A stretch of 64,000 bases of DNA, taken from assembly GCA_050123155.1 (NCBI GenBank), contig JASFHP010000005.1, forward strand, positions 16,551-80,550, read 5' to 3'. Each line of letters begins with the position of its first letter. The first letter of the stretch is position 1. The position numbers and the translations under genes are program-made. Of this stretch, positions 34,738 through 61,915 are shown one piece after another. Source of the DNA: Candidatus Bathyarchaeota archaeon. GTDB lineage: Archaea; Thermoproteota; Bathyarchaeia; Bathyarchaeales; Bathyarchaeaceae. The notes beneath the pieces were generated by a model, which was not told the DNA's origin, ran no database searches, and saw nothing but the letters and a program-made list of their open reading frames with translations.

Positions 34738-34800
34738 CATATTAGGAGCCTAATAGAGGTACATTGTTGAAAACAGTCTTTTTTCAGAAAATGAAGAGAA
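34738..34800 (+). repeat. Dispersed intergenic repeat, copy 1 (palindromic core ATTAGGAGCCTAAT + ATTGTTGAAAACAG + T6)
   Basis: CATATTAGGAGCCTAATAGAGGTACATTGTTGAAAACAGTCTTTTTTCAGAAAATGAAGAG. It lies between the convergent cbiB and repeat-protein genes. Confidence 0.85.
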
Positions 34801-34829
34801 ACAAGTTGGCTATTGAAAAGATGAAAGTT

Positions 34830-36431
34830 TCAGCTGTTAGGTTTTTTGTTTTTTCTTATTCGGGTTAAACAGAACAGAATTGTTACGATTGCTATGGCGG
34901 CTATGCCTATTGCAGCAACGATCACATGCCAAGTCGAAGGGGTACCGGAGTCGGTGTCAGGAACTGAATCGGGACCATCATCAGAAGTTGAGTCGGTTAC
35001 ATTTACTGTAAAAAAGATAGGTTCTGACGTTCCAACGTTTTCAGAATCATCATTCGCATATACGATGAGAGAATGCGAGCCATCTGTTAACCCTGTCAAA
35101 GTTGTTGCAGTTTCTGTTATGGTCACGTTGTCTTGCCAATCTAAGCTATAACCCATCCACGAAACATCCTCATCAACAGTAAACGCCAAAGTAACATAAT
35201 CTGTGGTGTATGTCTGGTTAGACGGCGAATCAACAATTACAGTGGGAGAAAATATGTCTGGAAAATTGAACCCGATACCAACACCGTATTCGTCAGTCAT
35301 AATTGACCAAATACCATAGGTAGTAGTGGAATACATGGGACCAGCTATTACGTATCCGCTATCAGTATGCTCAACCAACAAACCAATATCATATGCATAG
35401 GTTTGGTTCCACTCCTCGTTTCCATCCGCATCAGTTTTAACCAAAAACCCGTCGTCGTCTGCTAGTACGTATCCGCCATCACTAGTCTCAACCAACAAAC
35501 GAGCCCCATCATAAACTCCAGATCTTCCGTATGTCTGGTTCCACTCCAATTTCCCAAACCTATTAGTTTTAACTAACCAGAAATCTTGTCCACTATCGTC
35601 AAGGGAACTTGTTTCACCAGCTATTGCATATCCGCCATCAGAAGTCTCAACCAGCGCGTAAGCATAATCATAATCAGACTGTCTATATGATTGATTCCAC
35701 TTGGCATTCCCAAACTCGTCAGTTTTAACCAACCAGAAACGATATGGAATAGGAAGGCTTCTATCACCATGATACGAATAACCTGCCAGTGCGTATCCGC
35801 CATCAGAAGTCACGACCAAAGAAGTAATACGACCAGCTATTTCTCTGCTGTATGTTCGGTTCCACTCTTGGTTTCCATCCGCATCAGTCTTAACCAACCA
35901 AAATTTCTCGCTATCATACGAGTCAATATCCCCAAAAGAACATGTGGAACCAGCAATCGCAAAACCGTCATCAGGAGTCACAACCAAAGAGAAGGCGTCT
36001 TCATTCAATCCTCCCCCAAATGTTTGGTTCCATTCAACATTCCCCGACGCATCAGTTTTAACCAACCAAAAATCAACGTTTCCAGCACCAAAAGAAGTTG
36101 TGGAGCCAGCAATTACGTAGCCTCCATCAGAAACCGCGACCACAGAACGAGCCCGTTCGTTACCTGGTCCCCCGTATGTTCTGCTCCACTCAATGGTTCC
36201 AGAAGCATCAAATTTGGTCAAAAAAGCATCATAACTGCGCGCCCAAGAGAAACTTGTCTCACCAGCTACAGCATATCCGCCATCAGAAGTCCCAATTAAC
36301 GAATTAACCAATCCCCCATCATATGTTTGAGCCCACACTGAAGAATCGGCTCCAAACAGAACAACAAAACCAGCACTCGTCAAAACAGAAATCAACAAAC
36401 ATGAAACAAACAGATTTCTACGCACCAACAT
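34830..36431 (-). CDS. Secreted, C-terminally anchored repeat protein (~8 tandem ~45-aa 'DGGY..AG.T...D.WLVKTD..G...WN.TYG' repeats)
   Basis: The start is set at ATG 36431, giving signal-like MLVRRNLFVSCLLISVLTSAGFVVLFG. Repeats are visible by eye. The C-terminus has a Ser/Thr/Asp-rich linker, a TM helix VIVAAIGIAAIAIVTILFCL and a basic tail. The track start at 36518 is probably an over-extension. Confidence 0.75.
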   Translation of the reverse strand: MLVRRNLFVSCLLISVLTSAGFVVLFGADSSVWAQTYDGGLVNSLIGTSDGGYAVAGETSFSWARSYDAFLTKFDASGTIEWSRTYGGPGNERARSVVAVSDGGYVIAGSTTSFGAGNVDFWLVKTDASGNVEWNQTFGGGLNEDAFSLVVTPDDGFAIAGSTCSFGDIDSYDSEKFWLVKTDADGNQEWNRTYSREIAGRITSLVVTSDGGYALAGYSYHGDRSLPIPYRFWLVKTDEFGNAKWNQSYRQSDYDYAYALVETSDGGYAIAGETSSLDDSGQDFWLVKTNRFGKLEWNQTYGRSGVYDGARLLVETSDGGYVLADDDGFLVKTDADGNEEWNQTYAYDIGLLVEHTDSGYVIAGPMYSTTTYGIWSIMTDEYGVGIGFNFPDIFSPTVIVDSPSNQTYTTDYVTLAFTVDEDVSWMGYSLDWQDNVTITETATTLTGLTDGSHSLIVYANDDSENVGTSEPIFFTVNVTDSTSDDGPDSVPDTDSGTPSTWHVIVAAIGIAAIAIVTILFCLTRIRKNKKPNS

Positions 36432-36515
36432 CTCTCCATTGAATATACACTTGCCGAAAACAAGAAAAGCTTTGCGATTAAACCCGCTTTCTCGAATACA
36501 CAGCAAAACATCAAT

Positions 36516-36578
36516 CATATTAGGAGACTAATAGAGGTAGATTGTTGAAAACAGTGTTTTTTCTGGAAATGTGAAGGC
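36516..36578 (+). repeat. Dispersed intergenic repeat, copy 2
   Basis: CATATTAGGAGACTAATAGAGGTAGATTGTTGAAAACAGTGTTTTTTCTGGAAATGTGAAGG. About 85% identical to copy 1 by eye, and it ends 10 nt from the tRNA-Glu 3' end. Confidence 0.85.
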
Positions 36579-36587
36579 AATAATTTT

Positions 36588-36665
36588 TGGTGCTCCGGCC
36601 GGGATTCGAACCCGGGTCTCCGGCTCGAAAGGCCGGAATACTTAGCCAGACTATACTACCGGAGC
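36588..36665 (-). tRNA. tRNA-Glu (anticodon UUC) with genomically encoded CCA
   Basis: Minus strand GCTCCGG-TA-GTATAGTCTGGCTAAGTAT-T-CCGGC-CTTTCGA-GCCGG-AGAC-CCGGG-TTCGAAT-CCCGG-CCGGAGC-A-CCA. It has a 7-bp acceptor stem, a 5-bp anticodon stem, the loop CU-UUC-GA, and a T-loop TTCGAAT. Confidence 0.92.
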
Positions 36666-36718
36666 CTAAGCCAGAGCATCAACCACATAAAACATACATA
36701 CGTTTTAACCTTTCTCCA

Positions 36719-37996
36719 TCAGAAAGATATCTTAGCCGAGGAAGGAGTTCCGCCTATAACCTTCGCCGAAGCAGCACTCACCTCATCCACGTACTTTTCG
36801 TCTGTGTACACCCTGAGGATGTTGATGAAGCCTTTGAGAACATCAAACACCGAAGATATGTCGCTCAGCCGCAGAGGAACCCTCTCTCCTGTCCGGGTCT
36901 TCTGGAAAACAGGAATCTCCATAGGCTCAAGCAATTCAGAGTGATGATACGGCACCGAGGGAACTGTGGGCACATCAATCACAATGGTTTCAGGCTCAAC
37001 TCCCGCCTCTGACGCAATCTTGTTTCTCATCTGCTCCCGAACCTCGTCGACGCTGAAGATGCTGGGCACCATCTTTTCTCGAGCGTAGAAAGTTCTGTCG
37101 TAGGCGCACTTGAGGAGCCTGCGCCTCTCCAAGTTCTCCATTATTCCTCTAGACTTTTCGCATTCTCTCAGTTTGGTCCAAACAGTGTAGTCATTCAAGG
37201 CCAAGTAATCCTGAGGAGAATCAAAGTCCACCAAACCCAGCTCATCCTTTGCTTTCTCCATGGCTGTGGCAAGCATTATCTGAGCGGCTCTTCCAACACG
37301 GTGAAAGTAGATGCTTCTGAACGATTCCAACCTCGCCAACACAAAAGATTCAAGCGCTGACAGGGCTCCCACGTCAACAGCAAGATTTTCGCCCAGAACA
37401 TCCAGCATGTTGATGAGACGAAAAACATCTACATACCCATATTCTGCCCCGGTGTGATGGGTGTCCCTCACCACGAAATCGAGCTTGTCAACGTCTACAG
37501 TGCTTTGAATGACCTGATCCAAGAATGCTTTCCCTTTTCTCCGTAGTTCTCCAACCGCAAGTTTTGCCACCGCATCTGGGTCGTATCCCAGTTCACTGAT
37601 GATGTCCCGTAACTCAGATTTTTGGATAAGCCAGCGGGTCATATCCTCATGGGTTTTGTTCAGGAACTTCACGAGAAGATGCTCAAAAACGTGGGAGAAT
37701 GGACCGTGACCCACATCGTGGAGAAGAGCGGCCATTCTGACTGTTTGAATTTCCTCTTCCGAAAGAAGCGGAGAAATATTCTGATTTTCCGTTAACTTGC
37801 CTGCGAGATACATGACTCCGATGGAGTGCTCGAAGCGAGTGTGGTTTGCTCCTGAATACACGAACTCTGACCCCGCCAACTGCCTTAGCCGGTGAAGCCG
37901 TTGAAAAGGGTAAGAGTCGATGAGCCGCTTCTCTGCTTCGGTGATGTAAACATAGCCGTGAACCGGGTCTTTGATTTCCCCCCAGTATCGCCGCAT
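36719..37996 (-). CDS. HD-domain phosphohydrolase (dGTPase/SAMHD1-like dNTP triphosphohydrolase family)
   Basis: FEHSIGVMYLA.., AALLHDVGHGPFSHVFE, DKLDFVVRD. Length is 425 aa. Confidence 0.8.
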   Translation of the reverse strand: MRRYWGEIKDPVHGYVYITEAEKRLIDSYPFQRLHRLRQLAGSEFVYSGANHTRFEHSIGVMYLAGKLTENQNISPLLSEEEIQTVRMAALLHDVGHGPFSHVFEHLLVKFLNKTHEDMTRWLIQKSELRDIISELGYDPDAVAKLAVGELRRKGKAFLDQVIQSTVDVDKLDFVVRDTHHTGAEYGYVDVFRLINMLDVLGENLAVDVGALSALESFVLARLESFRSIYFHRVGRAAQIMLATAMEKAKDELGLVDFDSPQDYLALNDYTVWTKLRECEKSRGIMENLERRRLLKCAYDRTFYAREKMVPSIFSVDEVREQMRNKIASEAGVEPETIVIDVPTVPSVPYHHSELLEPMEIPVFQKTRTGERVPLRLSDISSVFDVLKGFINILRVYTDEKYVDEVSAASAKVIGGTPSSAKISF

Positions 37997-38083
37997 AGGG
38001 AACGTTTCTCCTCAGCCTTGTCAATCTAGAGCATCATTATTTAAGTTCATCGATAATTAAAAGGGTAGAGGCTGAACCACACA

Positions 38084-38689
38084 GTGAAGAAGGGAATATT
38101 CGTCTGCATCGAAGGCTTGGATGGAAGCGGAAAAACCACCCACGCCTACCGGCTTGTGCAGAACCTGCAGAAAAGAGGATTCAACGCTGTCTACACCACT
38201 GAGCCTGGGCGGGGAGAACTGGGAAAATTTATTCGTGCATCGGTTTTGCAGGGGAAGAAGCGGGTGCCCAGAGTTGTGGAGGCGGTTCTTTTTGCGGTTG
38301 ACCGTGTTGAGCATCTGGAGAAGGATGTGAAGCCGGCGTTGATGGCGGGGAAGGTTGTGGTTTCGGACAGGTGCGTGTACTCGTCTCTTGCGTATCAGGG
38401 GGCGGCGGGGCTGGACCTGAAATGGATTGAGGAGATTAACAGGTTTGCTCTTCCACCTGATTTGGCGTTGTATATTGATGTGCCGCCTGAGGTTGTGGTG
38501 AAGAGGATACGGCGGAAGAAGTCTGTTATGGAGAGGCTGGAGACCCAACGGAGAGTAAAAGAGGTTTACATGAAGTTTGTGGACAACGGAAATCTCATTT
38601 CTATCGACGGGGACAGAAAGAAAAGCGAAGTAGAACAAAACATTCTGAAGGTAATCCTAGATTTTCTGGAGAATCATAAAACATCTTGA
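38084..38689 (+). CDS. tmk: Thymidylate kinase
   Basis: GIFVCIEGLDGSGKTT P-loop, SDRCVYSSLAYQG, and a LID-like RIRRKK. GTG start. The overlapping minus-strand 193-aa ORF is rejected. Confidence 0.88.
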   Translation: MKKGIFVCIEGLDGSGKTTHAYRLVQNLQKRGFNAVYTTEPGRGELGKFIRASVLQGKKRVPRVVEAVLFAVDRVEHLEKDVKPALMAGKVVVSDRCVYSSLAYQGAAGLDLKWIEEINRFALPPDLALYIDVPPEVVVKRIRRKKSVMERLETQRRVKEVYMKFVDNGNLISIDGDRKKSEVEQNILKVILDFLENHKTS

Positions 38690-38726
38690 CCAAACGGTTC
38701 GTTGTTGATGAAAAGTTCTGCGAAGT

Positions 38727-39305
38727 TTAGACGATGTATGGTTGGTTTGGTTTTTCTAGGTCTTTAATGAGTTCCATGGCTTGCTTAGACGCGGGCATGC
38801 CAGTTAATGGGATTCCCTTGAGGAGAGACCAGGGAGTGTTTTCAGCCAATGTTGTGGCTATGTGGTCTTCCCCGAAACATTGCTTTGATATATCATAAAC
38901 TAGGGAGCGGACCTCAGCCTCTGAGATGTGCCCCAACGCGTGAAGGTACTCGTGGGTTAAGATGCTGTAAACGAAAGCGTTAACAAGCTTCTTCGACTTT
39001 GTCACCGCCTCCACAATGTTGACCAGTCTCCTGTTCAGAACAATGTTGTTTGTGCCCAGCTGATGGTACGCACCCAAATGAAGAGGCAAATCATCCAAGA
39101 AAAGCAACATACCCCGTCTATGCTCGCCTAAACAAACTTGAACGGTTTCCTTAACTATCTCCCAAATTCCGCGGAAGCCCTCAGCATCGTCAATCCTTAA
39201 ACAGTAATTCTCAACCATAGGTAACTCTTTTTCGGTCTTCGACTCTTCGTCTCTCCTGAGACGATCTGGTTGAAAGCTTACGGAAGCCAATTTTATCGCG
39301 ATCAT
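38727..39305 (-). CDS. Putative zinc metallopeptidase-like protein (HExxH)
   Basis: SILTHEYLHALGHI contains HEYLH followed by G-H. The likely true start is ATG 39218 (MVENYCLRIDD..). Confidence 0.5.
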   Translation of the reverse strand: MIAIKLASVSFQPDRLRRDEESKTEKELPMVENYCLRIDDAEGFRGIWEIVKETVQVCLGEHRRGMLLFLDDLPLHLGAYHQLGTNNIVLNRRLVNIVEAVTKSKKLVNAFVYSILTHEYLHALGHISEAEVRSLVYDISKQCFGEDHIATTLAENTPWSLLKGIPLTGMPASKQAMELIKDLEKPNQPYIV

Positions 39306-39386
39306 TATTACCTTCTAGTAACTTCTCACTATTTATACATATCACTTCTTGGCGCCACATTATATCGCCGAAAGCATCCCAACCTA

Positions 39387-39920
39387 TTATAAGCTGACTT
39401 TCTTGAAATCCCCAAAAAACAGCGGCATCAACTGCCTCTGGGGCAACTCAACGTTTATTTGTTTAACCAAAAACTCTGTCAAGTCATCTAAGGGAACCCG
39501 CTGCGTTCCCTTCTCATGGCGAATCCTCAGTTCCAAGCTGCCTTCTTGGAATGAGAAACGGAGCACACAATAATCGAACTTCAATGGAACCCGTTTACCG
39601 CCATCCCTGACACTGTGATAACAGACAGCGAAGAAAAAATCTAAAGTCTCCAACTCTGTTTCGTCAACGCTCTTCAGGCACTGCTCAAGCTCCTTCTGGT
39701 CCAAAAAATTGAAGCCAGCGCCATCAGCCACGCCGAACTCGAAACGGACCTCGCAATTCTGTTTCAAATAGGGAGTTACGGCGCCCAAATCAAAGGTTTC
39801 CTGATTCAGACGATGAAAGGTGCAGAGAATAGCCTTCTGGACCTCTTTAGCTGAGTCATGATACTCAAAAAGGGTTATACCGTGAACGTTTTCGGGAAAA
39901 TTTTCGTAACGCCCAAGCAA
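39387..39920 (-). CDS. Conserved hypothetical protein
   Basis: 177-aa ORF with globular-looking composition, co-directional with its neighbours. No motif recognised. Confidence 0.5.
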   Translation of the reverse strand: MLGRYENFPENVHGITLFEYHDSAKEVQKAILCTFHRLNQETFDLGAVTPYLKQNCEVRFEFGVADGAGFNFLDQKELEQCLKSVDETELETLDFFFAVCYHSVRDGGKRVPLKFDYCVLRFSFQEGSLELRIRHEKGTQRVPLDDLTEFLVKQINVELPQRQLMPLFFGDFKKVSL

Positions 39921-39942
39921 CCCAAACGCCTTTTGTTCCGGA

Positions 39943-40293
39943 TTAGGATGACTTTTTCATCTTTCGTATCCTTTCAAGATTCTCCAGAAGAGTTGACAGG
40001 GTGGCTCCAAGGCTGTTAAGTTTCTCTGCATCCGTTTCTTCTGCAAGCTGTTTCTCTATCGCCTGAATCTTAACTAGGATTGTTGATTCCAGACTAGAGA
40101 ATTTATCACCCTCTGGTTCCGGCTCTCCCTCTCGGACAATCATGACCCGCTTTTGGCAGCTGGCGCACCACAGGTTTCCGCTTCTTAGTTTGAAGAGAGG
40201 TGAAGCACAGGCTGGACAGGAATGCTCGGTGAGGGTGGCTCCCTGCCTAAGCAAGTCCGCCATAGCTTTGATGTTTTTTGAATCTTTAGTCAC
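39943..40293 (-). CDS. UPF0148-type zinc-ribbon protein (autoantigen p27-like)
   Basis: CPACASPLFKLRSGNLWCASCQKRV zinc ribbon after a helical N-terminus, with a coiled-coil C-terminus. Length is 116 aa. Confidence 0.65.
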   Translation of the reverse strand: MTKDSKNIKAMADLLRQGATLTEHSCPACASPLFKLRSGNLWCASCQKRVMIVREGEPEPEGDKFSSLESTILVKIQAIEKQLAEETDAEKLNSLGATLSTLLENLERIRKMKKSS

Positions 40294-40491
40294 GTCAAAC
40301 CCTTCTGAACAAGCTTTACGGTTTAGAGAATATATTTTTGCCGTCAGTTAATTAACTATCTATTCCGTGTTTCATCTAGAAACTGATTATTGAATGATTT
40401 ATGCTCCGTAAACGGTATAAATCGCCGCCTATTTATAGGATAAGAATAAATAGGTTACATCTCGTTTAAGCATGTTAATGGAGGCTTCTAT

Positions 40492-40770
40492 ATGGTTAGA
40501 AAAAAGAAATTACAGGAATATGAGGAGAGAATAGGAGAAGCCATGAATGTTCTTGGCATGGTTTCCGAAGACACCACCACTCCAAGAAACATAAGAAGAG
40601 CCGCGAAACAAGCAATCTCAGCCCTACAGGTCTCCGAAAACACCCCCGCAGTCAGAGCAGCCAACGCCATATCCATTCTGGACGAGATTCTGCAGGACCC
40701 CAACATGCCCCCCTACACCAGAGTGAAGCTCTGGAATGTGATGAGCCTACTTGAAGCCATAAAAGACTGA
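40492..40770 (+). CDS. UPF0147-family small helical protein
   Basis: ..EDTTTPRNIRRAAKQAI..L........R.ANAISILDEI..DPNMP.YTR..LW is the signature as I recall it for archaeal UPF0147. GGAGG lies 8 nt upstream of the ATG. Confidence 0.65.
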   Translation: MVRKKKLQEYEERIGEAMNVLGMVSEDTTTPRNIRRAAKQAISALQVSENTPAVRAANAISILDEILQDPNMPPYTRVKLWNVMSLLEAIKD

Positions 40771-40968
40771 AACCCCGGCAGGACTATCCGTGCATGTTTT
40801 CTTTCACACCCAATTCCTTACAGGCACCATAACAGCGGAAGCTTCACCCGTTTTCATTCGAATCTTGTTTAGGTTTTTTGGAGTTTTGCATGCCTAAAAG
40901 CTTTTGACAGACTTACATCCACCTTATTAGCTGGATTGGGTATTGCAGAAATTCTGAAAGGATGAGAT

Positions 40969-41607: not shown

Positions 41608-41694
41608 AAAAGGAAAAGCAAAAAGTTTTCTCCGAGGCTTGTGCTGCTAAGCTTCTTATATGCTGTGCACCAAGTTTAGGTTGGTGAACTTGTA

Positions 41695-42477: not shown

Positions 42478-42514
42478 AGCCCAATTTACGAAATTTTCTA
42501 ACAGTTTGTTGCCT

Positions 42515-42580
42515 CCTATTAGGAGCCTAATAACAGTGTATTGTTGAAAAACAGCTTTTTCTGCTATAGAAATTGAGAAA
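42515..42580 (+). repeat. Dispersed intergenic repeat, copy 3
   Basis: CCTATTAGGAGCCTAATAACAGTGTATTGTTGAAAAACAGCTTTTTCTGCTATAGAAATTGAG. It lies between the convergent HD and YegP genes. Confidence 0.8.
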
Positions 42581-42626
42581 AAAGGAGGAAGATAGGGTGA
42601 TGCCGGATAGTTGGAATTATCGCCTG

Positions 42627-43394: not shown

Positions 43395-43502
43395 AACATT
43401 TCCCCTGCATTAACTACTGTGCATTAGATTAATAAAAAAGGTTTTCTGCTGAGTTTTCCCTAATCTCTGCACTGTTGTTATCCGAAAATTCTGGGTTTAG
43501 GT

Positions 43503-44645: not shown

Positions 44646-44695
44646 CAGGGAACAAAGTTGCAGTTTCTTTTAACGGAAATATGTTGCATATGCAT

Positions 44696-51720: not shown

Positions 51721-51754
51721 GTTGTTTTGTCTCCCTTATTTTCTTGCAGAAACC

Positions 51755-51763
51755 TTTATATAA
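51755..51763 (+). promoter_or_regulatory. Candidate archaeal TATA box (TTTATATAA) with purine-rich BRE-like AGAAAC upstream, for the his operon
   Basis: Consensus-like TTTATATA in the 95-bp divergent intergenic region, about 53 nt upstream of ATG 51816 and 66 nt upstream of the hisZ frame. Confidence 0.4.
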
Positions 51764-51828
51764 GATGTGCGGAATATGGGTTTCAACCCACAAATTACCC
51801 ATTGGAGGACAAACGATGACAAGGAGGA

Positions 51829-53106: not shown

Positions 53107-53107
53107 A

Positions 53108-55047: not shown

Positions 55048-56128
55048 AGACTTGGTTCAAAAGGAAGTCAGAGACCTTTCCTGCTACGAAGTCAAAACCA
55101 TACTTGGGCAAAAGAAACAAGAAGAACTCGTGAAGATGAACCTGAATGAAAATTTTGCCATGTCAACTGAGACTATACAAGAACTGTTGCTTGAAGCTTG
55201 CCGAAGCATCGATGTTCGTGCGTATCCGCCTCCACGCGGCAGCCTAGCCATCAAAGCTATCTCCCGCTTCCTCGGCGTCAGCGAATCTGAGGTCTCTGTG
55301 GCGAACGGTGCAGATGAGGTCATGGACTTGTTAATGAAAGTGTTTGTTCGTAAGGGTTCGAAGGTTATGGTGGTTGAGCCGTCGTTTCCGATGTATACGT
55401 TCTTTGCGCAGCTGTATGGCGGCAGTGCGGTTCATGTGTTGCTCAGACCAGACTTCAGTTTGGATGTTGACGCCATATTGAATAAGGCGGACAATGATAC
55501 TCGACTGCTTTTCGTTTGTTCACCAAACAACCCAACAGGCAACCAGTTCCGAGAAGCGAACATCAAAAGGCTATTGCAGGAATTCAAGGGTGTCGTCGTT
55601 GTGGATGAAGCCTACGTTGACTTCGCTCAAGGTTCGGTCATAGACTGGGTGAAAGAATATGAAAATCTTGCTGTTTTACGAAGCTTTTCGAAGGCGTTCG
55701 GCTTGGCTGGGCTCCGTCTCGGCTACCTTGTTTCAAGCGCTTCAATCGTAGAGTATGTTCAGAGGGTTGTGGGACCCTTCAACGTGAATTCAGTAACCCA
55801 ACAAACCATAGCATTGGCTCTAGAGAAATGGAGCTACTTTGAACAGCAAATCAAATATGTAGTCAATGAACGGGAATGGCTGATGAAAAAGCTAAGACAA
55901 ATCGATGGAGTAAACCCGTATCCTTCAAGCGCAAACTTCATCCTATTCAAAGTAACCAAACCAAACCTCACCTCTGCAGCCGTAGCTGAGAGAATGGAAA
56001 GCAGAAACGTGCTGGTGAAAGATAGGGGGCACCTACCGCTCCTGGAGAATTGCATACGCGTCACGGTTGGAAGCCGAAACATGAACCAAGCATTCCTTTC
56101 AGCCCTGAAGGAGAGTCTGGAGGAGTAG
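55037..56128 (+). CDS. hisC: Histidinol-phosphate aminotransferase
   Basis: LNENF...YPPP, NPNNPTGN, VVDEAY.DF, RSFSKAFGLAGLRLGY (PLP lysine). The start is set at GTG 55037 (VKIKDLV..), which overlaps hisD by 11 nt. Confidence 0.9.
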   Translation: MKIKDLVQKEVRDLSCYEVKTILGQKKQEELVKMNLNENFAMSTETIQELLLEACRSIDVRAYPPPRGSLAIKAISRFLGVSESEVSVANGADEVMDLLMKVFVRKGSKVMVVEPSFPMYTFFAQLYGGSAVHVLLRPDFSLDVDAILNKADNDTRLLFVCSPNNPTGNQFREANIKRLLQEFKGVVVVDEAYVDFAQGSVIDWVKEYENLAVLRSFSKAFGLAGLRLGYLVSSASIVEYVQRVVGPFNVNSVTQQTIALALEKWSYFEQQIKYVVNEREWLMKKLRQIDGVNPYPSSANFILFKVTKPNLTSAAVAERMESRNVLVKDRGHLPLLENCIRVTVGSRNMNQAFLSALKESLEE

Positions 56129-56133
56129 AAGGA

Positions 56134-57330
56134 ATGGTTTACCAACTGTTGAACGAGGAAAGGCGGATATACGTGAGGGAAGACTCCGAAGAGCCTCTTC
56201 GTGGGATAGAAAAGATAATCTTCGACTTCGATGGGGTGCTTGTTCAAACCAGCCAGTCTTACCGCCAGACAGTGAGAAAGGTTGTTGACTACTACTTCCT
56301 AGAACTATTGGGTCTCGAAGGCGAAGAAGGAAAGCTGGCTACCCTACGGGACATCCAGAAGTTCAAGGACACGGGACTATACAACAACGATTGGAACCTC
56401 TCCTACACCTTCATAACCTACTACCTAACCCTCATAATGAGAGAGCTGGAACAAAAAGGCGCCCTCAAAGAATTCACAAAACAATTCTACATCCTCCAGT
56501 TCTTGGACATCAAAAGCTTCACTCAGTCGCTCCTAAACGTTAGTGACTTCCTTAAGCGCTACGAAATCACCGCCGCAGACCTTGCCAACCTGAAAGACAA
56601 CGGCATCATAAATTTGGATTTGTTCTTGGCGCAAGCCAAACTTGAAAAACCTAAACCCATCGAAACATCGCTTGTGGGAGTCGATCCAGAAGTTGCAGAG
56701 GATGAACAGCTTCTTGTCAGAAAGCTGGTGCCCTATGACCTTGAGAAGCCTGATCTGCTGAAGCGACTGTTTGAGGAAACCTATCTGGGCAAAGAATTGT
56801 TCACCAAAATTTATGCTGCCCAATCATTCTTCAAATTTGACGGAAGCTTCATAGACAAAGAAACGTTCATTCCCACCAAGCAGACCATGGAACTGCTTCG
56901 CAGACAGTTTGGCACGTTCGGAATCTACTCGGGAAGACCCAGACCCCAAGGTATGTACATCCTAGAAAAATACGGTTACACTGGATACTTTGACGAAAAA
57001 GAATCCGTGTTTCTCGGAGACCTCCTCAAGTCCGAGGATAAAATGGAAAAGCTTGGGAAACCAGACCCCACCCTCTTCATCGAGTTGATAGAGAAACTTG
57101 TTGACCGAGAAACTGGAGTGGCGTATGTGGGAGACGGAATCGCCGACGCCCTGCTGGTTGAAAATGCAAGGTCTGAGGGTGCCGAGAATTTGTTGTTTCT
57201 GGGTGTTATGTCCTCATCGGAGGATTCAAATAAGCTTTTTACTGAATACGGCAAACATGGGGCTGACGTAATTATGACCGATGCAAATGACATTCCATTC
57301 ATGCTCAAAAGTTTGGGAGGAAGTGTTTGA
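56134..57330 (+). CDS. HAD-superfamily hydrolase with an unusually large cap insertion; candidate histidinol-phosphatase
   Basis: HAD motifs I FDFDGVL, II GIYSGRPR, III GKPDP, IV VGDGIADA. About 240 aa lie between motifs I and II. It is the only non-his-annotatable gene in the operon, sitting between hisC and hisB. The start is ATG 56134. Confidence 0.7.
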   Translation: MVYQLLNEERRIYVREDSEEPLRGIEKIIFDFDGVLVQTSQSYRQTVRKVVDYYFLELLGLEGEEGKLATLRDIQKFKDTGLYNNDWNLSYTFITYYLTLIMRELEQKGALKEFTKQFYILQFLDIKSFTQSLLNVSDFLKRYEITAADLANLKDNGIINLDLFLAQAKLEKPKPIETSLVGVDPEVAEDEQLLVRKLVPYDLEKPDLLKRLFEETYLGKELFTKIYAAQSFFKFDGSFIDKETFIPTKQTMELLRRQFGTFGIYSGRPRPQGMYILEKYGYTGYFDEKESVFLGDLLKSEDKMEKLGKPDPTLFIELIEKLVDRETGVAYVGDGIADALLVENARSEGAENLLFLGVMSSSEDSNKLFTEYGKHGADVIMTDANDIPFMLKSLGGSV

Positions 57331-57331
57331 A

Positions 57332-57910
57332 ATGAGAAAAGTGAAGGTTGAAAGAAAAACCAAAGAAGTAGAAATAGCCGTGGAGTTAAACGTTGACGGA
57401 AAAGGAAACGCAGATGTGGAGACGGGAATCAAGTTTCTGGACCACATGCTGGTCACTCTAGCGAAGCATGGGCTATTCGACCTGAAAGTCAAAGCAGACG
57501 GAGACCTACCACACCACGTCAGCGAGGATGTAGCATTGGTTCTAGGCGAAGCGCTACGTAAAGTGGTGGCTGAAGGGAAGGGCATCAAACGGTTCGGCTC
57601 AGCCTACGTTCCCATGGACGAATCATTGGCAAGAGCGGCTGTGGACTTGGGCGGAAGAGCCTACTCGATTCGAAACCTCAGACTGATGCAAGCGCAGGTC
57701 GAAGACATGAAAACCGAGGACATGGAACACTTCTTCGACTCCTTAGCCCAAGCCTCGAAAGCAAACATTCACGTAACAGTCATCTACGGCAGCAACGAAC
57801 ACCACAAAGTAGAGGCGGCTGTGAAAGCCTTAGCCTTGGCATTAAGACAAGCATTAACCATTGAGCCGAGAATCGGAGACCAGGTTCCAAGCGCAAAGGG
57901 GGTTCTGTAA
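57332..57910 (+). CDS. hisB: Imidazoleglycerol-phosphate dehydratase
   Basis: RKTKEVEI.V.L..DG.G, GI.FLDHML, DLPHHVSEDVALVLG, NEHHKVEA. ATG 57332 is preceded by GGGAGG. Confidence 0.92.
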   Translation: MRKVKVERKTKEVEIAVELNVDGKGNADVETGIKFLDHMLVTLAKHGLFDLKVKADGDLPHHVSEDVALVLGEALRKVVAEGKGIKRFGSAYVPMDESLARAAVDLGGRAYSIRNLRLMQAQVEDMKTEDMEHFFDSLAQASKANIHVTVIYGSNEHHKVEAAVKALALALRQALTIEPRIGDQVPSAKGVL

Positions 57911-58521
57911 CGGCACCGCAAGTTGCAGTTGTGAACTATGGCGTGGGAAACCTGAGAAGCATCACGAGAGGACTCGAAAAATCGGGAGCAACCGTAGAGA
58001 TAACCCACAACCCAACAAATCTGCGCCGCTCTGATGCCATAGTTCTTCCAGGCGTCGGCGCCTTTGCCCCCGCAGTCAAAAACATGGCACCAATAACTGA
58101 TGTTGTAGCTGAGACAATGAAGAACGGCAAACCTATCCTTGGAGTGTGTTTAGGTCTTCAGCTCCTGTTCACGCGTAGCAGCGAAGGCGGATCAGTCAAT
58201 GGACTGGACTTTATTTCAGGAGACATCGTCAAGTTGCCTGAAACTGTGAAGACTCCCCAGATGGGATGGAACACCCTTAACATGGTGCAGTCGCATCCGC
58301 TGCTTGAGGGCGTTAAAGACGGCTCTTACGTCTATTTCGTTCACTCATACTATCCGCAGCCCACAGACCCACAGGTAATCGTAGCAACCACAGAATACGG
58401 GGTCAGGTTTCCTTCAATGGTTGCAAAAAAGAACCTGTTTGCTACACAGTTTCACCCAGAAAAAAGCAGCAAAACAGGATTAACCATGCTGAAGAACTTC
58501 GTGAGGATCGTGAAGAGGTAA
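57907..58521 (+). CDS. hisH: Imidazole glycerol phosphate synthase, glutamine amidotransferase subunit
   Basis: (QVAVV)NYGVGNLRSI, LPGVGAF, GVCLGLQLL (nucleophile Cys), FHPEKS. The first canonical start (GTG 57931) removes the conserved first beta-strand. The provisional start is GTA 57907, which overlaps the hisB TAA (see finding). Confidence 0.85.
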   Translation, partial: VTAPQVAVVNYGVGNLRSITRGLEKSGATVEITHNPTNLRRSDAIVLPGVGAFAPAVKNMAPITDVVAETMKNGKPILGVCLGLQLLFTRSSEGGSVNGLDFISGDIVKLPETVKTPQMGWNTLNMVQSHPLLEGVKDGSYVYFVHSYYPQPTDPQVIVATTEYGVRFPSMVAKKNLFATQFHPEKSSKTGLTMLKNFVRIVKR

Positions 58522-58526
58522 CCGAG

Positions 58527-59246
58527 ATGATAGTTATCCCCGCAGTCGACATTCTGGACGGAAAATGTGTTCGGCTTGTCCGAGGAGACCCTAGCAGAAG
58601 CAAGATCTACTACGATAATCCGGTGGAGGCGGCTCAACTGCTGGAAGAGCAAGGGGCAGAATTCCTTCATCTGATTGACTTGGATGCCGCGTTAGGTTCT
58701 GGACAAAACTTGGAAACAATCAAAAACGTGTTAGAGAATATCAGTGTGAAGGTGCAGATTGGCGGAGGAATCAGAACCTTGGAAAAGGCTGATGCTCTGC
58801 TGAAACTTGGCGCCTATCGAGTGATCTTCGGAACAACCGCAGTCAACAATCCCCCATTGGTTCAAGAGGCGGTTAGACAGCACGGGCCAGAAAGCGTTGC
58901 CGTAGCCATAGACGAGAAAGACGGGAAAGTGGCAGTTCACGGCTGGAAGAACAGGTCCGAAATAGATTGCTTGAGCCTCGCCCGCACATTCGAAGGGATG
59001 GGAGTCGGCGCCTTAATCTTCACGCCAATCAGCGTGGACGGAACCTTGAAGGGACCAGTAATAGAAAAAACCGTGAAGCTGGTGGAAGCGGTGAAGACTC
59101 CTGTTATCGCGTCTGGTGGCGTAGCCAGCCTTGAAGACTTGGTTGCGCTAACTGGAACTGGCGTGGAGGGTGTGGTGGTTGGCACTGCACTTTACGAGAA
59201 AAGGTTTACATTAAGGGAGGCTTTGGAGGCGGTGAAAGGATGTTAG
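58527..59246 (+). CDS. hisA: ProFAR isomerase
   Basis: [31 protein letters not shown], and a SGGV region. Length is 239 aa. Confidence 0.92.
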
Positions 59247-60049
59247 CTAAGAGAATCGTGCCCTGCTTGGACGTCAAGGATGGAAAGGTTGTGAAGGGCG
59301 TTCAGTTCGTGAACCTGAAAGTTGAGGGAGACCCGCCTGAGCTTGCTGCAGCTTATGAGGAGCAGGGAGCGGATGAGCTGGTTTTCCTTGACATAACTGC
59401 TTCCTACGAGAAGAGGGACACTACATTGAAGGTGGTGAAAAAAACCTCGGATATGATTTCTATTCCCTTCACTGTGGGCGGGGGCATCCGAAACATCAAT
59501 GACATACAGAATGCTCTCTCCAGCGGGGCAGACAAGGTTTCCGTGAACACTGCGGCGGTGAGAGCACCCAATCTTGTGAAGGAATCGGCTGAAGTTTTCG
59601 GCAGCCAATGTATTGTTGTTGCCATAGACGCGAAAAGAGTTTACGTGGACAAAAGTTTGCCTGACAGGACGGTTGTAGATACTCCTAAAGGAAAATGCTG
59701 GTGGGAAGTCTACGTTGAGGGAGGAAGAGTGCCCACTGGAGTAGATGCGATTGCTTGGGCTAAAAACGTGAAGGAGTTGGGTGCAGGGGAACTGCTGCCA
59801 ACAAGCATGGACTGCGACGGAGTACAAACGGGTTATGACATTGAGTTGACGCGAACCATGAGCAAGGTAACCAATCTGCCGATAATTGCCAGCGGAGGCG
59901 CCGGAAACCTTGAACACATCTACGAGGTTTTGACGGAGGGAGACGCTGACGCCGCCCTAGCTGCTTCGATTTTTCATAGGGGTCAGTATTCTGTGGGAGA
60001 AGTTAAGAGCTACCTTTCAGAAAAAGGAGTGCCCATGCGGCTAGTATAA
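59240..60049 (+). CDS. hisF: Imidazole glycerol phosphate synthase, cyclase subunit
   Basis: [40 protein letters not shown]. Length is 269 aa. Confidence 0.93.
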
Positions 60050-60055
60050 CTGAGG

Positions 60056-60751
60056 TTGAGAAAATTGGTGTTACAACTTGATGAAAACGAGATTAACGAG
60101 TTCGTGAAAAAGGTCGACTTTGAGAAGGGTAAAGGTCTTGTTCCCGCTGTGGTTCAGGACGCATCAGACGGTCGGGTGCTGATGCAGGCTTACATGAATG
60201 AGGAAGCAGTACGGTTGACTTTGGCGAGTGGCAAGACACATTTCTGGAGCAGAACCAAGAACAGACTGTGGATGAAAGGCGAAGAGTCTGGGCACTATTC
60301 ACTAGTGCAGAATGCGGTTTTGGACTGTGATGATGATGCGATTCTGTTCAAGGTTCAGCAGATAGGGCCAGTGTGCCACACAGGCGAAGAAACGTGCTTC
60401 TACAAGCCCATAAAGCCCGAAGAAGCGGTGGCGGTTGATGCGAAGATGCTTGAGAGGCTTTTCGAAGTCGTAAAAGAGCGGATTCGAAACCCCACTGAGA
60501 AATCGTATGTTTCCCGCCTGACTGCAGAAGGAGAGGATGCTGTCCTCCAGAAGATAGGGGAAGAAGCAACAGAAATAGTGCTTGCAGCAAAAGCGAACAA
60601 CGCCAAAGATGTTACGCATGAAGCCGCAGACGTGATCTTCCACATCATGGTGATGTTCGCCCAAAAGGGCATCCCACTTAATAGCATCTTCGAAGAGCTG
60701 GAGCGCCGACACAAAAACAAAACAGAAAAATCACAGAAGCAAAGTAAATAA
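60056..60751 (+). CDS. hisIE: Bifunctional phosphoribosyl-AMP cyclohydrolase / phosphoribosyl-ATP pyrophosphatase
   Basis: The HisI part is LVPAVVQD...VLMQAYMN.EA...T...G...FWSR.....W.KGE.SG (with CDDDAILFKV, CHTG). The HisE part is SYVS.L...G.D.V.QKIGEEA.E. Length is 231 aa. Confidence 0.9.
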   Translation: MRKLVLQLDENEINEFVKKVDFEKGKGLVPAVVQDASDGRVLMQAYMNEEAVRLTLASGKTHFWSRTKNRLWMKGEESGHYSLVQNAVLDCDDDAILFKVQQIGPVCHTGEETCFYKPIKPEEAVAVDAKMLERLFEVVKERIRNPTEKSYVSRLTAEGEDAVLQKIGEEATEIVLAAKANNAKDVTHEAADVIFHIMVMFAQKGIPLNSIFEELERRHKNKTEKSQKQSK

Positions 60752-60781
60752 CGGCTTTTTCTAGGACATTATGTTCACTGT

Positions 60782-61852
60782 TTGGTTGGGCAAGAAATGA
60801 GTTGGGAAAAAACGTTAGACCGTTATGGTGCAGTTATCGAGGAGCGCCTCAGAACGTTTCTGGACAAAGCCGTAGAAGAGGCGGCGGATTATCATCCCTT
60901 CATTGGGAAGGTTTACGGTGACGTTGAAGAGTTTGTGCTCCGGAAAGGCAAACGGCTGGCTTCCTGCAGCACGCTCCTCACGTACAAGGGCTACAGCGGA
61001 AAGGTTGACAGCAGAATCTTGGATGTCTGCGTTGGAATTGAGCTGTACCGCCACGCAATTCTGGTCCACGACGACATAGTTGACATGGACAATCAGCGAA
61101 GAGGCGGAAAAACGTTGCACAAAGAATTCACGGACAGCTACAGCCCCTACAACAGCCGATTCGGAGAAGCAGCCGCCATCTTCGCCGGCAACATCGTATA
61201 CGCCCTTGCGGTACGCGCCATAATGGACTCGGGTTTTCCAGAAGAGACCGTTAACAGGGTGCTGCTTCTGCTTTCTGAGGGCTACCGGGCGGTTAACGAG
61301 AGCCAAATCCTCGACCTACAGTTCGAGCACAAGGATGTAGATGTTGAGGAGTGGCGTGTTATGGCAGGCAAAAGAGCCGCCTCGCTCTTCAAGGTTACGC
61401 TGCTTGCGGGCGCAATTCTAGGAGACGCTTCAGAGAAGGACAGATCCTTGTTAGGAGAAGCAGCCGAGAACATGGGCTACTCGTTTGACATCCAAGACGA
61501 CATCATCGACAGCTTCGCTCCCAAAGACGAGTATGGCAGATCACCGTGCCTGGACATCTCCAAAAACAAGAAGCCCCTCCACATAATCTATGCACTAAAC
61601 TCGGAGGACCAAACAAAATCTGAGGCTTTGAAATGTCTTCTCGGCAAAGAATTCCTCAACATAGGGGAGGTAGAGTTGGCTAGGAAGTTGCTGCGGGAAA
61701 GTGGAGGACTGGACGCAGCAAAACAGGAGTCAAAGAAACACGCTGAACAGGCTAAAGCGCTCATAACCCAAACAAGCCTAGCTGAGGACGTTAAAGAATT
61801 CTTCAGCAGCTTCATCGGATACATAGAAGAAAGCCTAAACTGGTACAAATAG
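60782..61852 (+). CDS. Polyprenyl diphosphate synthase (trans-IPPS; GGPP/GFPP synthase type)
   Basis: First Asp-rich motif ILVHDDIVDMDNQRRG, second FDIQDDIID. Length is 356 aa (ATG 60797 is an alternative start). Confidence 0.88.
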   Translation: MVGQEMSWEKTLDRYGAVIEERLRTFLDKAVEEAADYHPFIGKVYGDVEEFVLRKGKRLASCSTLLTYKGYSGKVDSRILDVCVGIELYRHAILVHDDIVDMDNQRRGGKTLHKEFTDSYSPYNSRFGEAAAIFAGNIVYALAVRAIMDSGFPEETVNRVLLLLSEGYRAVNESQILDLQFEHKDVDVEEWRVMAGKRAASLFKVTLLAGAILGDASEKDRSLLGEAAENMGYSFDIQDDIIDSFAPKDEYGRSPCLDISKNKKPLHIIYALNSEDQTKSEALKCLLGKEFLNIGEVELARKLLRESGGLDAAKQESKKHAEQAKALITQTSLAEDVKEFFSSFIGYIEESLNWYK

Positions 61853-61859
61853 AAGCAAG

Positions 61860-61915
61860 CATATTAGGAGCCTAACAAGGGTATACTTGTAAGAAAATGC
61901 TTTTAGCTTTTTTAC
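61860..61915 (+). repeat. Dispersed intergenic repeat, copy 4 (most diverged)
   Basis: CATATTAGGAGCCTAACAAGGGTATACTTGTAAGAAAATGCTTTTAGCTTTTTTAC. It lies between the convergent prenyl synthase and SBP genes. Confidence 0.7.

Follow-up and report, generated by a model that had tools for sequence, protein, structure and literature searches.

Our analysis revealed that four similar sequences in the window (the whole 64,000-nucleotide stretch of bathyarchaeal DNA analysed here) belong to a genuine, apparently undescribed family of dispersed repeats, for which the searches yielded over 200 additional copies. We favour, at about even confidence, reading this family as a non-coding, interspersed, REP/MITE-like non-autonomous repeat specific to the lineage of Bathyarchaeum-type Bathyarchaeia. 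Among the three roles proposed in the first-pass annotation of this DNA (a terminator or insulator cassette, a small-RNA gene family, or a miniature mobile or recombination-type element), the last best fits the observed subfamilies, arrays, composites and insertion/deletion polymorphism.

Four copies in the window

The coordinates and shared plus-strand orientation of the four copies (Table 1) were confirmed. A repeat search grouped copies 1–4 into one family over 45 nt (100/93/78/73% identity), while copies 1–3 could be compared over 57 nt (100/91/68%). A 13-mer core (ATTAGGAGCCTAA, up to two mismatches) matched the window six times, comprising the four sites and two palindromic self-hits, versus 1.33 ± 1.10 matches in shuffled sequences (six reached in 0 of 100 shuffles), and a profile built from ~110 relatives picked out these four sites and no others in the 64 kb (E values 1e-17 to 5e-8). 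The four copies are far beyond chance. The two-part structure ascribed to all of them holds for copies 1–3; copy 4 retains the head only, its second half (ACTTGTAAGAAAATG) having diverged.

Table 1 Coordinates of repeat copies and neighbouring features in the window.
Feature	Position	Strand	Composition	Profile match (64-kb window)
Copy 1	34738–34815	+	Repeat family member, V1 class GAGGTAC; CAT 34738–34740; head TATTAG-GAGC-CTAATA 34740–34755; V1 34756–34762; block 2 ATTGTTGAAAAC 34763–34774; T6 34779–34784; CAG+A4 34785–34791; then A-rich tail	nhmmer, 34734–34803, E 1.9e-17
Copy 2	36516–36587	+	Spacer GAGA; V1 GAGGTAG; head 36518–36533; block 2 36541–36552; T6 36557–36562; CTG 36563–36565; tail abuts tRNA-Glu 3' end	E 9.9e-18
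Copy 3	42515–42590	+	CCT replaces CAT; spacer GAGC; V1 ACAGTGT; head 42517–42532; block 2 ATTGTTGAAAAA 42540–42551; T5 42556–42560; CTG 42561–42563	E 1.7e-13
Copy 4 (decayed)	61860–61941	+	Head nearly intact, TATTAG-GAGC-CTAACA, 61862–61877; block 2 degenerate (ACTTGTAAGAAAA); T4 61901–61904; T6 61908–61913	E 5.1e-8
tRNA-Glu(UUC)	36588–36665	-	Neighbour, outside repeat; 3' end is right-hand limit of copy 2	
562-aa repeat-containing protein gene	34830–36518	-	Context, outside repeat	

The reported distances to flanking genes also hold. Plus-strand stops of cbiB (34658), an HD-domain gene (42477) and a polyprenyl synthetase gene (61852) lie 80, 38 and 8 nt before copies 1, 3 and 4, and minus-strand 3' ends lie 72–130 nt past the copy starts: the stop of the 562-aa ORF (34830), ahead of which copy 1 ends, tRNA-Glu (36588), a DUF1508 gene (42627) and a solute-binding-protein gene (61990). 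The description of all four as lying in convergent gaps does not extend to copy 2, which is flanked by two minus-strand genes, since on its left it faces the 5' end of the 562-aa ORF. The adjoining tRNA-Glu(UUC) was called by ARAGORN and by the Rfam tRNA model (63.7 bits); the copy 2 orthologue adjoins tRNA-Glu in L012, L058, L087, L001 and L107, and in five genomes the T-run keeps a constant distance of ~29–32 nt from the tRNA end. The 562-aa ORF contains a signal-peptide-like stretch after Met30, its product is probably secreted and its real start is probably near 36431; a Pfam search returned no match.

The repeat unit and its hosts

The unit consists of CAT, the near-palindromic head TATTAG-N4-CTAATA, seven variable nucleotides, the block ATTGTTGAAAA, 3–5 nt, T5–7, CWG, an A run and an A/C-rich tail of ~30 nt. 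Its polarity is fixed, its left end (CAT) is sharp and it has no start codon; besides single units, head-to-tail arrays of 2–3 units are found. The length of 50–65 nt first assigned to it is too short, given the extent of the tail past the T-run and an array period of 82–92 nt; the full unit spans ~80–90 nt. Both the ATTGTTGAAAA block and the right arm of the head (CTAATA, ~100%) are invariant in the family, and the T5–7/CWG/A4–5 module forms a quasi-palindrome, with T4–5 on the opposite strand arising from CWG-A4–5 and GAAAA. The variable segments, V1 and V2, come in discrete classes that are linked to each other.

At least 104 stretches in GTDB genomes carry the repeat, and the matches listed all come from Bathyarchaeia MAGs except for two short contigs, which are probably misbinned. 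An independent scan with the right half only found 120 stretches in sediment metagenomes, with the full head present in 102 of 124 unique right-half matches. Overall, copies come essentially exclusively from Bathyarchaeum/Bathyarchaeia genomes and sediment metagenomes; a search of viral contigs gave 0 matches. In 1.48 Mb of flanking sequence all 211 palindromes are family copies, and head and block 2 never occur separately. The density in the window (4 copies per 64 kb, or about one per 16 kb) would amount to about a hundred copies in a genome of 1.5 Mb. Contigs frequently end inside the repeat.

The dyad had been described as a 6-2-6 arrangement too tight for an RNA hairpin. Family-wide its form is 6-4-6 (TATTAG-NNNN-CTAATA), so that a tetraloop hairpin is sterically possible, and 6-2-6 or 7-2-7 forms are confined to the GAGC variant. 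The related proposal, that the dyad is read by its sequence and does not act as a paired RNA stem, was borne out: changes at its 6 pairs were compensatory in 0 cases versus one-sided in 33, and a subfamily making up 20% carries an uncompensated T.T mismatch. Recognition of the repeat by sequence, not by structure, is the best reading of these data.

Placement and orientation

Copies are intergenic in 131 of 133 cases and occupy gaps ~90–190 nt longer than those without a copy, lying less than 50 nt from gene 3' ends versus 100–400 nt from 5' ends. The first-pass annotation placed them always at 3' ends in convergent gaps. A preference for gene 3' ends is real, with 24% of convergent gaps occupied compared with 12% of tandem and 10% of divergent ones (a roughly two-fold convergent enrichment), but "always" does not hold for the family, as all four gap types occur: classified by the strands of the flanking genes, contexts number 52 (+,-), 43 (+,+), 43 (-,-) and 34 (-,+). 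Orientation does not depend on the direction of the flanking genes, (+,+) and (-,-) contexts being equally frequent (43 each). Adjacent copies on a contig tend to point the same way, by 24:7 (18:6, p = 0.023; plus 6:1), a tally that includes pairs 15–150 kb apart.

Family dynamics and origin

Individual genomes contain their own amplified composites, with copies 77–90% identical: three of 230 nt in CAYNQS, five of 115–170 nt in JAOZIF and four of 150 nt in CAZJLG. Homology among the three CAYNQS triplets starts exactly at CAT and stops after the last T-run; this composite was also met in other metagenome contigs, frequently with a decayed first unit. At one site a copy persists in six genomes whose flanks are 72–82% identical. 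The conserved blocks of these orthologues are invariant, while V1, V2 and spacer swap wholesale between subfamily types, and one of the six genomes has a flipped 4-nt spacer. L043 lacks a 262-nt stretch, containing a doublet, that L015 carries. Neither duplicated flanks (target-site duplications) nor terminal inverted repeats were found at the copies, which excludes classical MITE transposition.

On our favoured reading, a trans-acting factor that recognises its sequence would copy or overwrite the repeat, or else gene conversion among copies would do so, and the repeat would settle harmlessly just past the 3' ends of genes, ahead of the next promoter. The T-run on one strand and the A-run on the other would probably serve secondarily as a transcription stop or punctuation in either direction. 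In the window, the first T5+ run past the stops of cbiB, the HD-domain gene and the polyprenyl synthetase gene is inside the repeat, and across the family this is true for 25 of 36 head-side genes, suggesting that the T-run/A-run module may stop transcription. Several observations temper this interpretation: no mobilising enzyme emerged from the surroundings, with no Y1-HUH-like ORF found in the 1.48 Mb of flanking sequence and transposases not enriched among 150 flanking proteins; many copies keep their position from species to species and have invariant blocks, which fits host function under purifying selection equally well; the break in the sole presence/absence case (L015/L043) is not at the repeat's own boundaries; and, as regards the secondary stop role, T5+ runs follow stop codons hardly more often than A5+ runs in these genomes (33–37% versus 28–32%), while 27 (-,-) contexts hold no plus-strand gene for the T-run to stop.

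Such a host function, which we regard as a distinctly less probable primary explanation, would make each copy a factor-dependent bidirectional terminator or insulator kept alike by selection and not by spread, with a DNA-binding protein on CTAATA-N7-ATTGTTGAAAA (together with the left half-site) acting as a roadblock and the T-run/A-run pair releasing polymerase on either side. The convergent enrichment and proximity to stop codons agree with this scenario, as do the T5–7 on one strand and T4–5 on the other, the invariance of the blocks at orthologous sites across species, the constant linkage of head and block 2, and the protein-site behaviour of the dyad. On the tail side the first T5+ run is inside the repeat for 13 of 38 genes, besides the 25 of 36 on the head side. 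However, the repeat occupies only ~7% of gaps in the window, and 34 of 172 copies lie in divergent gaps without a nearby 3' end. Nor do these genomes use oligo-T as a general 3' signal, and selection at individual sites leaves subfamilies, composites, arrays and V1/V2 swaps between orthologues unexplained.

The shared orientation of neighbouring copies, together with its independence from gene direction, raises an unlikely alternative in which orientation follows the direction of replication: an HUH-type enzyme would recognise the head as an imperfect hairpin on one DNA strand (by the logic of IS200/IS605, REP-RAYT or IS91/Helitron), or else the repeat would be a polar chromosomal signal. The lack of duplicated flanks and inverted ends, the single sharp end with its subterminal imperfect palindrome, the head-to-tail arrays and the spacer flipped in situ, as hairpin-mediated template switching predicts, are all compatible with a single-strand-DNA element. 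Set against this are the failure to find an HUH protein in the flanking 1.48 Mb and a report of only IS200-type Y1 transposases in Archaea, with REP-associated subclasses reported only from Bacteria (PMC6006769). Some close same-orientation pairs may be split tandem arrays, and all window copies are on the plus strand whether they lie before or after the GC-skew turn at ~48 kb, a turn that reflects gene strand and at which orc1/cdc6 was not found.

Homology breakpoints could instead mark a recombination site, that is, an attC- or dif-like gene-cassette boundary with exchange at the dyad and polarity set by its asymmetric centre (AG or CT), though we consider this improbable. Copies 1 and 2, which match at 93% over 45 nt, flank the 562-aa ORF as direct repeats, paralogues of this surface-protein gene lie near repeat copies in L012, L035, L053, L078, L081 and L037, and the GAGC/GCTC variants form 7-2-7 dyads like serine-recombinase crossover sites. 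Homology to the closest relatives breaks off at the repeat or within it for each of the four window copies: at 34785, right past the T-run of copy 1 (L139, 90%); at 36512/36513, where synteny of copy 2 with L012 (91%) and L107 (85%) begins; at 42560 in copy 3 (L183, 86%); and at 61863 in copy 4 (L174, which has a doublet at the equivalent place). This link consists of a handful of hand-read cases, however, and in other sets of orthologues synteny holds to the left and right of the copy. The sparse spacing of copies is unlike that of cassette arrays, tyrosine recombinases account for just 2 of the 150 flanking proteins, and a neighbouring 2.4-kb indel (38673–38727) in L107 involves no repeat copy.

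The small-RNA proposal (small RNA genes or 3'-UTR motifs, with the hairpin and variable 7-nt segment as a seed) is very improbable: it would account for the fixed polarity, the variable segment between conserved blocks, the terminal T-run and a tail motif, CA[AG](n)CA[AG], found in 92 of 223 copies versus 25.6 ± 4.2 in shuffles, which could pair with UUGUUG while tolerating A/G variation as U-A or U.G, but this motif lies past the T-run and occurs in just 41% of copies, RNAalifold on 123 sequences gave only a 6-bp hairpin of -3.5 kcal/mol with zero covariation (and likewise on a 168-column composite alignment), folding of both strands was no better than that of shuffles (z -0.86 to +0.94), Rfam returned nothing for the repeat with E relaxed to 10, the left flank is not conserved and no conserved promoter was found upstream, and C/D boxes are absent.

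Comparison with known systems

The favoured REP/MITE-like interpretation draws on several resemblances. Like REP/BIME elements (REPINs, mobilised by RAYTs), the repeat is short and extragenic, joins an imperfect palindrome to a conserved tag, reaches (by extrapolation) roughly a hundred copies per genome, and is strictly intergenic, often just after genes; composite arrays, vertical persistence within a lineage, genome-specific subfamilies and proposed roles in termination and at mRNA 3' ends are also shared. In contrast to REP/BIME, its palindrome is A/T-rich and 6 bp long, not G+C-rich, it lacks the GTAG/CGTC tag, its arrays are head-to-tail instead of alternating or inverted, it includes the long invariant non-palindromic block and the T/A-run module, and no RAYT was found in the 1.48 Mb of flanks.

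With MITEs, Correia/NEMIS, ERIC, BOX, RUP and MIRU it shares a non-coding, intergenic and modular nature, subfamilies and copy-number differences among genomes, and some of those elements work as terminators or as promoters; direct tandem arrays of 50–90-nt units are also seen in MIRU and BOX. It differs from this group in its archaeal host and in lacking terminal inverted repeats and target-site duplication, and no related transposase was identified. PATEs (derived from IS200/IS605), IS91 and Helitron-like elements similarly have neither inverted ends nor duplicated flanks, and show a subterminal imperfect hairpin by one sharp end, same-strand hairpin arrays and a tendency of neighbours to share orientation, whereas most copies here have one hairpin instead of a left-end/right-end pair, no TnpA/TnpB lies nearby and no conserved target tetranucleotide is established. 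Finally, archaeal oligo-T terminators resemble the repeat in having T5–7 soon after a stop, with T4–5 on the opposite strand, an arrangement suited to convergent genes; ordinary ones, however, lack a conserved 60-nt cassette with invariant non-T blocks, the orientation of this repeat ignores the upstream gene, and 3' ends in these genomes show scarcely any oligo-T enrichment.

The repeat family and its hosts

The four repeat copies flagged by the first-pass annotation were confirmed at their positions in the window, starting at 34738, 36516, 42515 and 61860, all on the + strand. Repeat finding clustered them as a single family (45 nt at 100/93/78/73% identity; 57 nt at 100/91/68% for copies 1–3), with the second half of copy 4 decayed. 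A 13-mer core yielded six matches at ≤2 mismatches in the window (the four sites and two palindromic self-hits), while shuffles yielded 1.33 ± 1.10 matches and 0 of 100 reached six. A profile HMM built from ~110 relatives recovered precisely these four sites in 64 kb and no others.

Scanning one genome per GTDB species with the exact pattern returned at least 104 stretches, and all those listed came from Bathyarchaeum/Bathyarchaeia MAGs (including the complete chromosome CP070820.1) except for two short contigs labelled as bacteria. One of the two shares its tRNA-Glu junction with the window and has probably been binned wrongly. An independent metagenome scan, which used the right half of the unit only (ATTGTTGAAAA-N3-6-TTTTTTCWG), returned at least 120 stretches, with the full head (the dyad TATTAG-N4-CTAATA) present on 102 of the 124 unique matches listed. 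The expectation that further copies exist elsewhere was thus borne out, with >200 family copies carrying the 6-4-6 dyad, as was the placement outside coding regions (131 of 133 copies intergenic). Since the window is ~90% identical to two repeat-bearing Bathyarchaeia loci (L012 and L139) in syntenic genes, it must itself come from a Bathyarchaeum-type genome. Copies occur about once per 16 kb, and extrapolation from four per 64 kb gives an estimated ~100 per genome. A viral origin was rejected, as IMG/VR viral contigs gave no match to either of two patterns. Rfam returned no match, neither at the gathering threshold nor at E up to 10, and no prior description of the family turned up in full-text searches of the literature or in the paper describing the genus Bathyarchaeum.

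Short-read assemblies of these MAGs evidently break at the repeat. Eight loci of the MAG JAENXI are contigs of 500–900 nt holding little beyond one repeat copy, and contigs from five other loci terminate within a copy.

Anatomy of the unit

Read in its fixed polarity, the unit consists of CAT, TATTAG, a 4-nt spacer, CTAATA, a 7-nt segment (V1), the invariant block ATTGTTGAAAA(C), a second variable segment of 3–5 nt (V2), T5-7, C(T/A)G, A4-5 (T5 instead in one unit type), CC-AAG and an A/C-rich tail. Its left end (CATATTAG) and its right end (the A/C-rich tail) are unrelated. The left edge is sharp at CAT, and conservation fades along the tail. Two observations set its length at ~80–90 nt, namely the tandem period of 82–92 nt and the constant 29–32 nt between the T-run and the tRNA-Glu 3' end in five genomes. 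V1 falls into a few discrete classes (GAGGTAC, RCAG-NNN and ATACTTC), each tied to particular V2 types. The T5-CWG-A5 module is a quasi-palindrome in itself, in which either centre occurs.

The first-pass annotation described the head as a tight 6-2-6 dyad. Its family-wide form is 6-4-6; the 6-2-6 or 7-2-7 geometry belongs to the GAGC spacer variant only. Spacers in an unbiased sample of 102 were GAGA (33), GAGC (17) and GCTC, the flipped form (13), followed by AAGA, TAGT, TATA and others. The dyad in this sample showed 33 one-sided changes versus 0 compensated ones, a subfamily comprising 20% of copies (CATATTTG...CTAATA) carries a T.T mismatch without compensation, and the right arm CTAATA is essentially invariant, indicating that sequence rather than pairing is conserved. 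All 211 ATTAG-N4-CTAAT palindromes in 1.48 Mb lay within family copies, so the head and the invariant block are never found apart, and solo palindromes acting as operator sites elsewhere were rejected, none occurring in that sequence. A closing helix between the flanks was likewise rejected, as flank-to-flank complementarity did not exceed that of permuted partners.

Genomic placement and transcription punctuation

The first-pass annotation placed the repeat always at convergent gene 3' ends. Its distances from the copies to stop codons and to minus-strand 3' ends are correct, and copy 2 is an exception to the convergent setting: it is flanked by two minus-strand genes, a tRNA-Glu that faces it with its 3' end (36588) and a 562-aa ORF (34830–36518) that faces it with its 5' end. 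Family-wide, with genes called by a simple longest-ORF caller and ARAGORN, all four flanking arrangements occur, at frequencies indicating that repeat orientation is unrelated to the direction of adjoining genes (for example, 43 versus 43 tandem loci).

Directions of the genes flanking the repeat (upstream, downstream), relative to the repeat
Arrangement	Genome loci	Metagenome loci	Combined
(+,-) convergent	28	24	52
(-,-)	27	16	43
(+,+)	25	18	43
(-,+) divergent	16	18	34

Repeat position is not random. In the loci, a repeat was present in 24% of the convergent gaps, in 12% of the tandem ones and in 10% of the divergent ones. Copies mostly lay <50 nt from 3' ends and 100–400 nt from 5' ends, and gaps with a repeat were 90–190 nt longer than those without. 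The adjoining genes in the window encode CbiB, CbiZ, HD proteins, a polyprenyl synthetase, a solute-binding protein and DUF1508; elsewhere they include eIF2-alpha, PAC2 and phosphoglycerate mutase. This diversity of housekeeping functions among 150 flanking proteins argues against a linked gene family. Copies also adjoin the 3' ends of tRNA-Gly and tRNA-Val genes (two loci each), in either orientation, and the tRNA-Glu(UUC) of the window (36588–36665, -) has a genomically encoded CCA end.

The first T5+ after the cbiB, HD and polyprenyl synthetase genes in the window lies within the repeat. Family-wide, the same was true on the head side (the CAT end) for 25 of 36 genes and on the tail side (the A/C-rich end) for 13 of 38. 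Because T-runs are present on both strands of the unit, it may plausibly act as a bidirectional transcription stop. A scan with bacterial promoter and terminator models made no call at the repeat sites.

These patterns invite the reading that the repeat is a factor-dependent terminator or insulator selected by the host, which we regard as unlikely. In repeat-free gaps of the genome loci and the window, T5+ runs occurred within 80 nt past 33–37% of stop codons versus 28–32% for A5+; oligo-T is thus no clear general termination signal in this lineage. T-runs are also kept in (-,-) contexts, where a + strand gene is absent. Together with the indifference of orientation to genes, these results led us not to take termination as the main purpose of the repeat; any terminator activity would likely be a side effect or a co-opted role.

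Evolution of the family and mobility

Copies occur as singles, doublets and triplets, and all doublets and triplets are head-to-tail with a period of 82–92 nt. Several MAGs have amplified composites of their own at 77–90% identity: three 230-nt triplets in CAYNQS, five 115–170-nt units in JAOZIF and four 150-nt doublets in CAZJLG. Homology among the CAYNQS triplets starts exactly at CAT and stops past the last T-run; this composite was found again on additional metagenome contigs, frequently with a decayed first unit. Several repeat sites are conserved across species. At one gap orthologous among six genomes (flanks 72–82% identical), the copy is kept with invariant conserved blocks, yet V1, V2 and tail are exchanged as a whole for those of other family types. 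A doublet is present in one of these genomes, and in one the 4-nt spacer is reverse-complemented in situ. Such exchanges beside invariant blocks suggest conversion or re-insertion, by which other members of the family overwrite orthologous copies, more than slow divergence under local selection. A 262-nt stretch with a doublet is present in locus L015 and missing from L043, and the edges of this indel differ from those of the repeat. The 6–12 nt left of a copy resembled that copy's tail no more closely than tails elsewhere in the family, giving no sign of a target-site duplication.

Neighbouring sites on a contig tended to share orientation (18:6, p = 0.023; 6:1 in the metagenome set; 24:7 in total), including pairs tens of kb apart. 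An element moving through single-stranded DNA by an HUH-type enzyme, or one whose polarity follows replication, would be oriented along the chromosome, and we consider this explanation quite unlikely. A motif search for HUH..Y ORFs of the RAYT-like Y1 type found none in 1.48 Mb of loci. A replication origin was not identified in the window, orc1/cdc6 not being found near the GC-skew turn.

At each of the four window copies, homology to the closest relatives, read by hand, ends at the repeat or within it (34785, 36512/36513, 42560 and 61863), and alignments of 3.8 and 9.2 kb span many gaps without a repeat. Our impression is that synteny breaks at the window copies are associated with the repeat; other orthologous repeat sets keep synteny on both sides. 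A recombination or cassette site would account for such breaks, yet it is very unlikely given one copy per ~16 kb and only two integrases among the 150 flanking proteins, which is no enrichment. Transposases were not enriched among them either.

Neighbouring genes and gene-content change

The 562-aa ORF is bracketed by copies 1 and 2. It contains six or seven internal repeats of ~52–56 aa (nucleotide period 156–168). Its N-terminus past Met30 resembles a signal peptide, a hydrophobic anchor lies at the C-terminus, and Pfam gave no match. Paralogues (30–47% identity) lie near repeat copies at six other loci. The short gap at 38673–38727 is a hotspot of gene-content change: locus L107 has 2.4 kb with a 708-aa ORF there, L012 carries both a repeat copy and a gene paralogous to the 562-aa ORF, and in L183 synteny is lost.

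Two paralogous segments 18.8 kb apart (6545–7382 and 25354–26204; 78–88% identical) contain small ORFs without assigned function, one with a weak MazE-like match, and each adjoins a family-2 glycosyltransferase gene. G+C is 0.34–0.40 at 1–10000 and 62001–64000, compared to 0.44–0.51 in the remainder of the window. As glycosyltransferases are located in these low-G+C ends, they may be horizontally acquired or surface-polysaccharide gene regions.

RNA, coding and promoter readings

The first-pass annotation listed a small-RNA gene family among candidate roles, a proposal that did not hold up. RNAalifold of 123 copies produced only a 6-bp hairpin (-3.5 kcal/mol) with 0 covarying pairs, a 168-column alignment of composite units contained no covarying pair, and the four window copies, folded on both strands, were no more stable than shuffles (z -0.86 to +0.94). 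With neither covariation, C/D boxes nor an Rfam match, a structured small RNA was rejected and an sRNA gene is highly improbable. The TTGTTGA...CTGA likeness to a C/D-box sRNA is superficial, lacking C, D' and RUGAUGA boxes. The CARCAR tail motif is enriched; its pairing with the invariant block was rejected, as the motif occurs in only 41% of copies and also left of CAT. This second location suggests that CARCAR probably represents tails of neighbouring or decayed units.

Coding readings fared no better. A + strand ORF from the TTG at 34764 spans 34, 10 and 11 codons in copies 1–3, the frame not being kept because T-run lengths vary, and a leaderless minus-strand start at the conserved ATG (the reverse complement of CAT) gives a median ORF of 18 codons over 104 copies. 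Both promoter readings look weak on sequence grounds alone: a + strand promoter (BRE-like GGAGA, then TAATA) would place its start site within the T-run, and only 45% of copies face a gene that a - strand promoter could serve. In one orthologous gap seen at six loci (3700–3800 of L045), a strongly conserved block reads ...TTGGAAACGTAAATAGGTGTGTTCGCACAA... in the sense of the gene it would serve and sits 40–110 nt away from the repeat head. It looks like the BRE/TATA promoter of the adjoining gene and hints at the form of real promoters in this lineage.

A CRISPR repeat or mini-array was also considered, as 37 nt ending in GAAAAC are similar in appearance. It was rejected since arrays have at most three units, V1 and V2 differ inside units, and the 'spacers' are conserved between paralogous arrays.

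A proposed lineage-specific, REP- or MITE-like interspersed repeat

We favour, with about as much doubt as confidence, a lineage-specific, non-autonomous interspersed repeat, REP/BIME- or MITE-like, that would be recognised by sequence through a putative factor and lies near gene 3' ends, possibly serving as transcription punctuation. Such a repeat would tolerate or exploit sites just past gene 3' ends. A bolder version, rather unlikely as a whole, is that this is the first archaeal REP-like system: a host-maintained polar repeat whose orientation would track replication rather than transcription, with a putative factor reading CTAATA-N7-ATTGTTGAAAA, doubling as bidirectional punctuation where oligo-T terminators are scarce. 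That sequence might be read by an enzyme of the HUH type, by a recombinase or by a protein acting as a roadblock.

Bathyarchaeia count among the most abundant archaea in sediments, and for one representative a sustained enrichment culture is now available. For this group, the repeat provides a lineage marker and an explanation of broken MAG assemblies, whose contigs end in it, and is likely a place where arrays expand and rearrangements concentrate. Should the T/A-run module halt transcription, or should a dedicated protein bind the conserved blocks, the repeat would offer a handle on termination and insulation in Bathyarchaeia. This would be of value, as oligo-T does not serve as a general 3' signal in these genomes. 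If its orientation follows replication, the repeat would represent a polar signal of a kind rare on archaeal chromosomes.

Comparison with known systems

REP, BIME and MITE elements are well studied in bacteria and poorly charted in archaea. The repeat fails the defining tests of REP-RAYT systems (tag and inverted pairs, with no enzyme found in 1.48 Mb of loci), MITEs, integron attC sites, CRISPR and known RNA families, and we place it in none of them. The R''-L''...L'-R' cores of attC (RYYYAAC/GTTRRRY) are absent from its consensus, and attC sites form dense arrays next to an integrase, unlike these sparse copies. MITEs have terminal inverted repeats and target-site duplications, whereas the repeat has neither. 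It shares that absence with IS200/IS605-type PATEs, which carry left and right same-strand hairpins; repeat arrays also carry same-strand hairpins, though most copies have a single one. Like archaeal oligo-T terminators, window copies 1, 3 and 4 place a T5+ just past a co-oriented gene, as at most head-side genes family-wide, but the orientation of the repeat disregards gene direction.

With REP/REPIN-RAYT systems it shares a short imperfect palindrome, high copy number and extragenic placement. Their tag is GTAG or CGTC, while here CA(T) flanks an A/T-rich palindrome, and REPINs and BIMEs form inverted pairs, in contrast to the exclusively head-to-tail arrays of the repeat. Only IS200-type Y1 transposases, and not the REP-associated subclasses, have been reported in Archaea (PMC6006769), so a true REP-like system here would be new.
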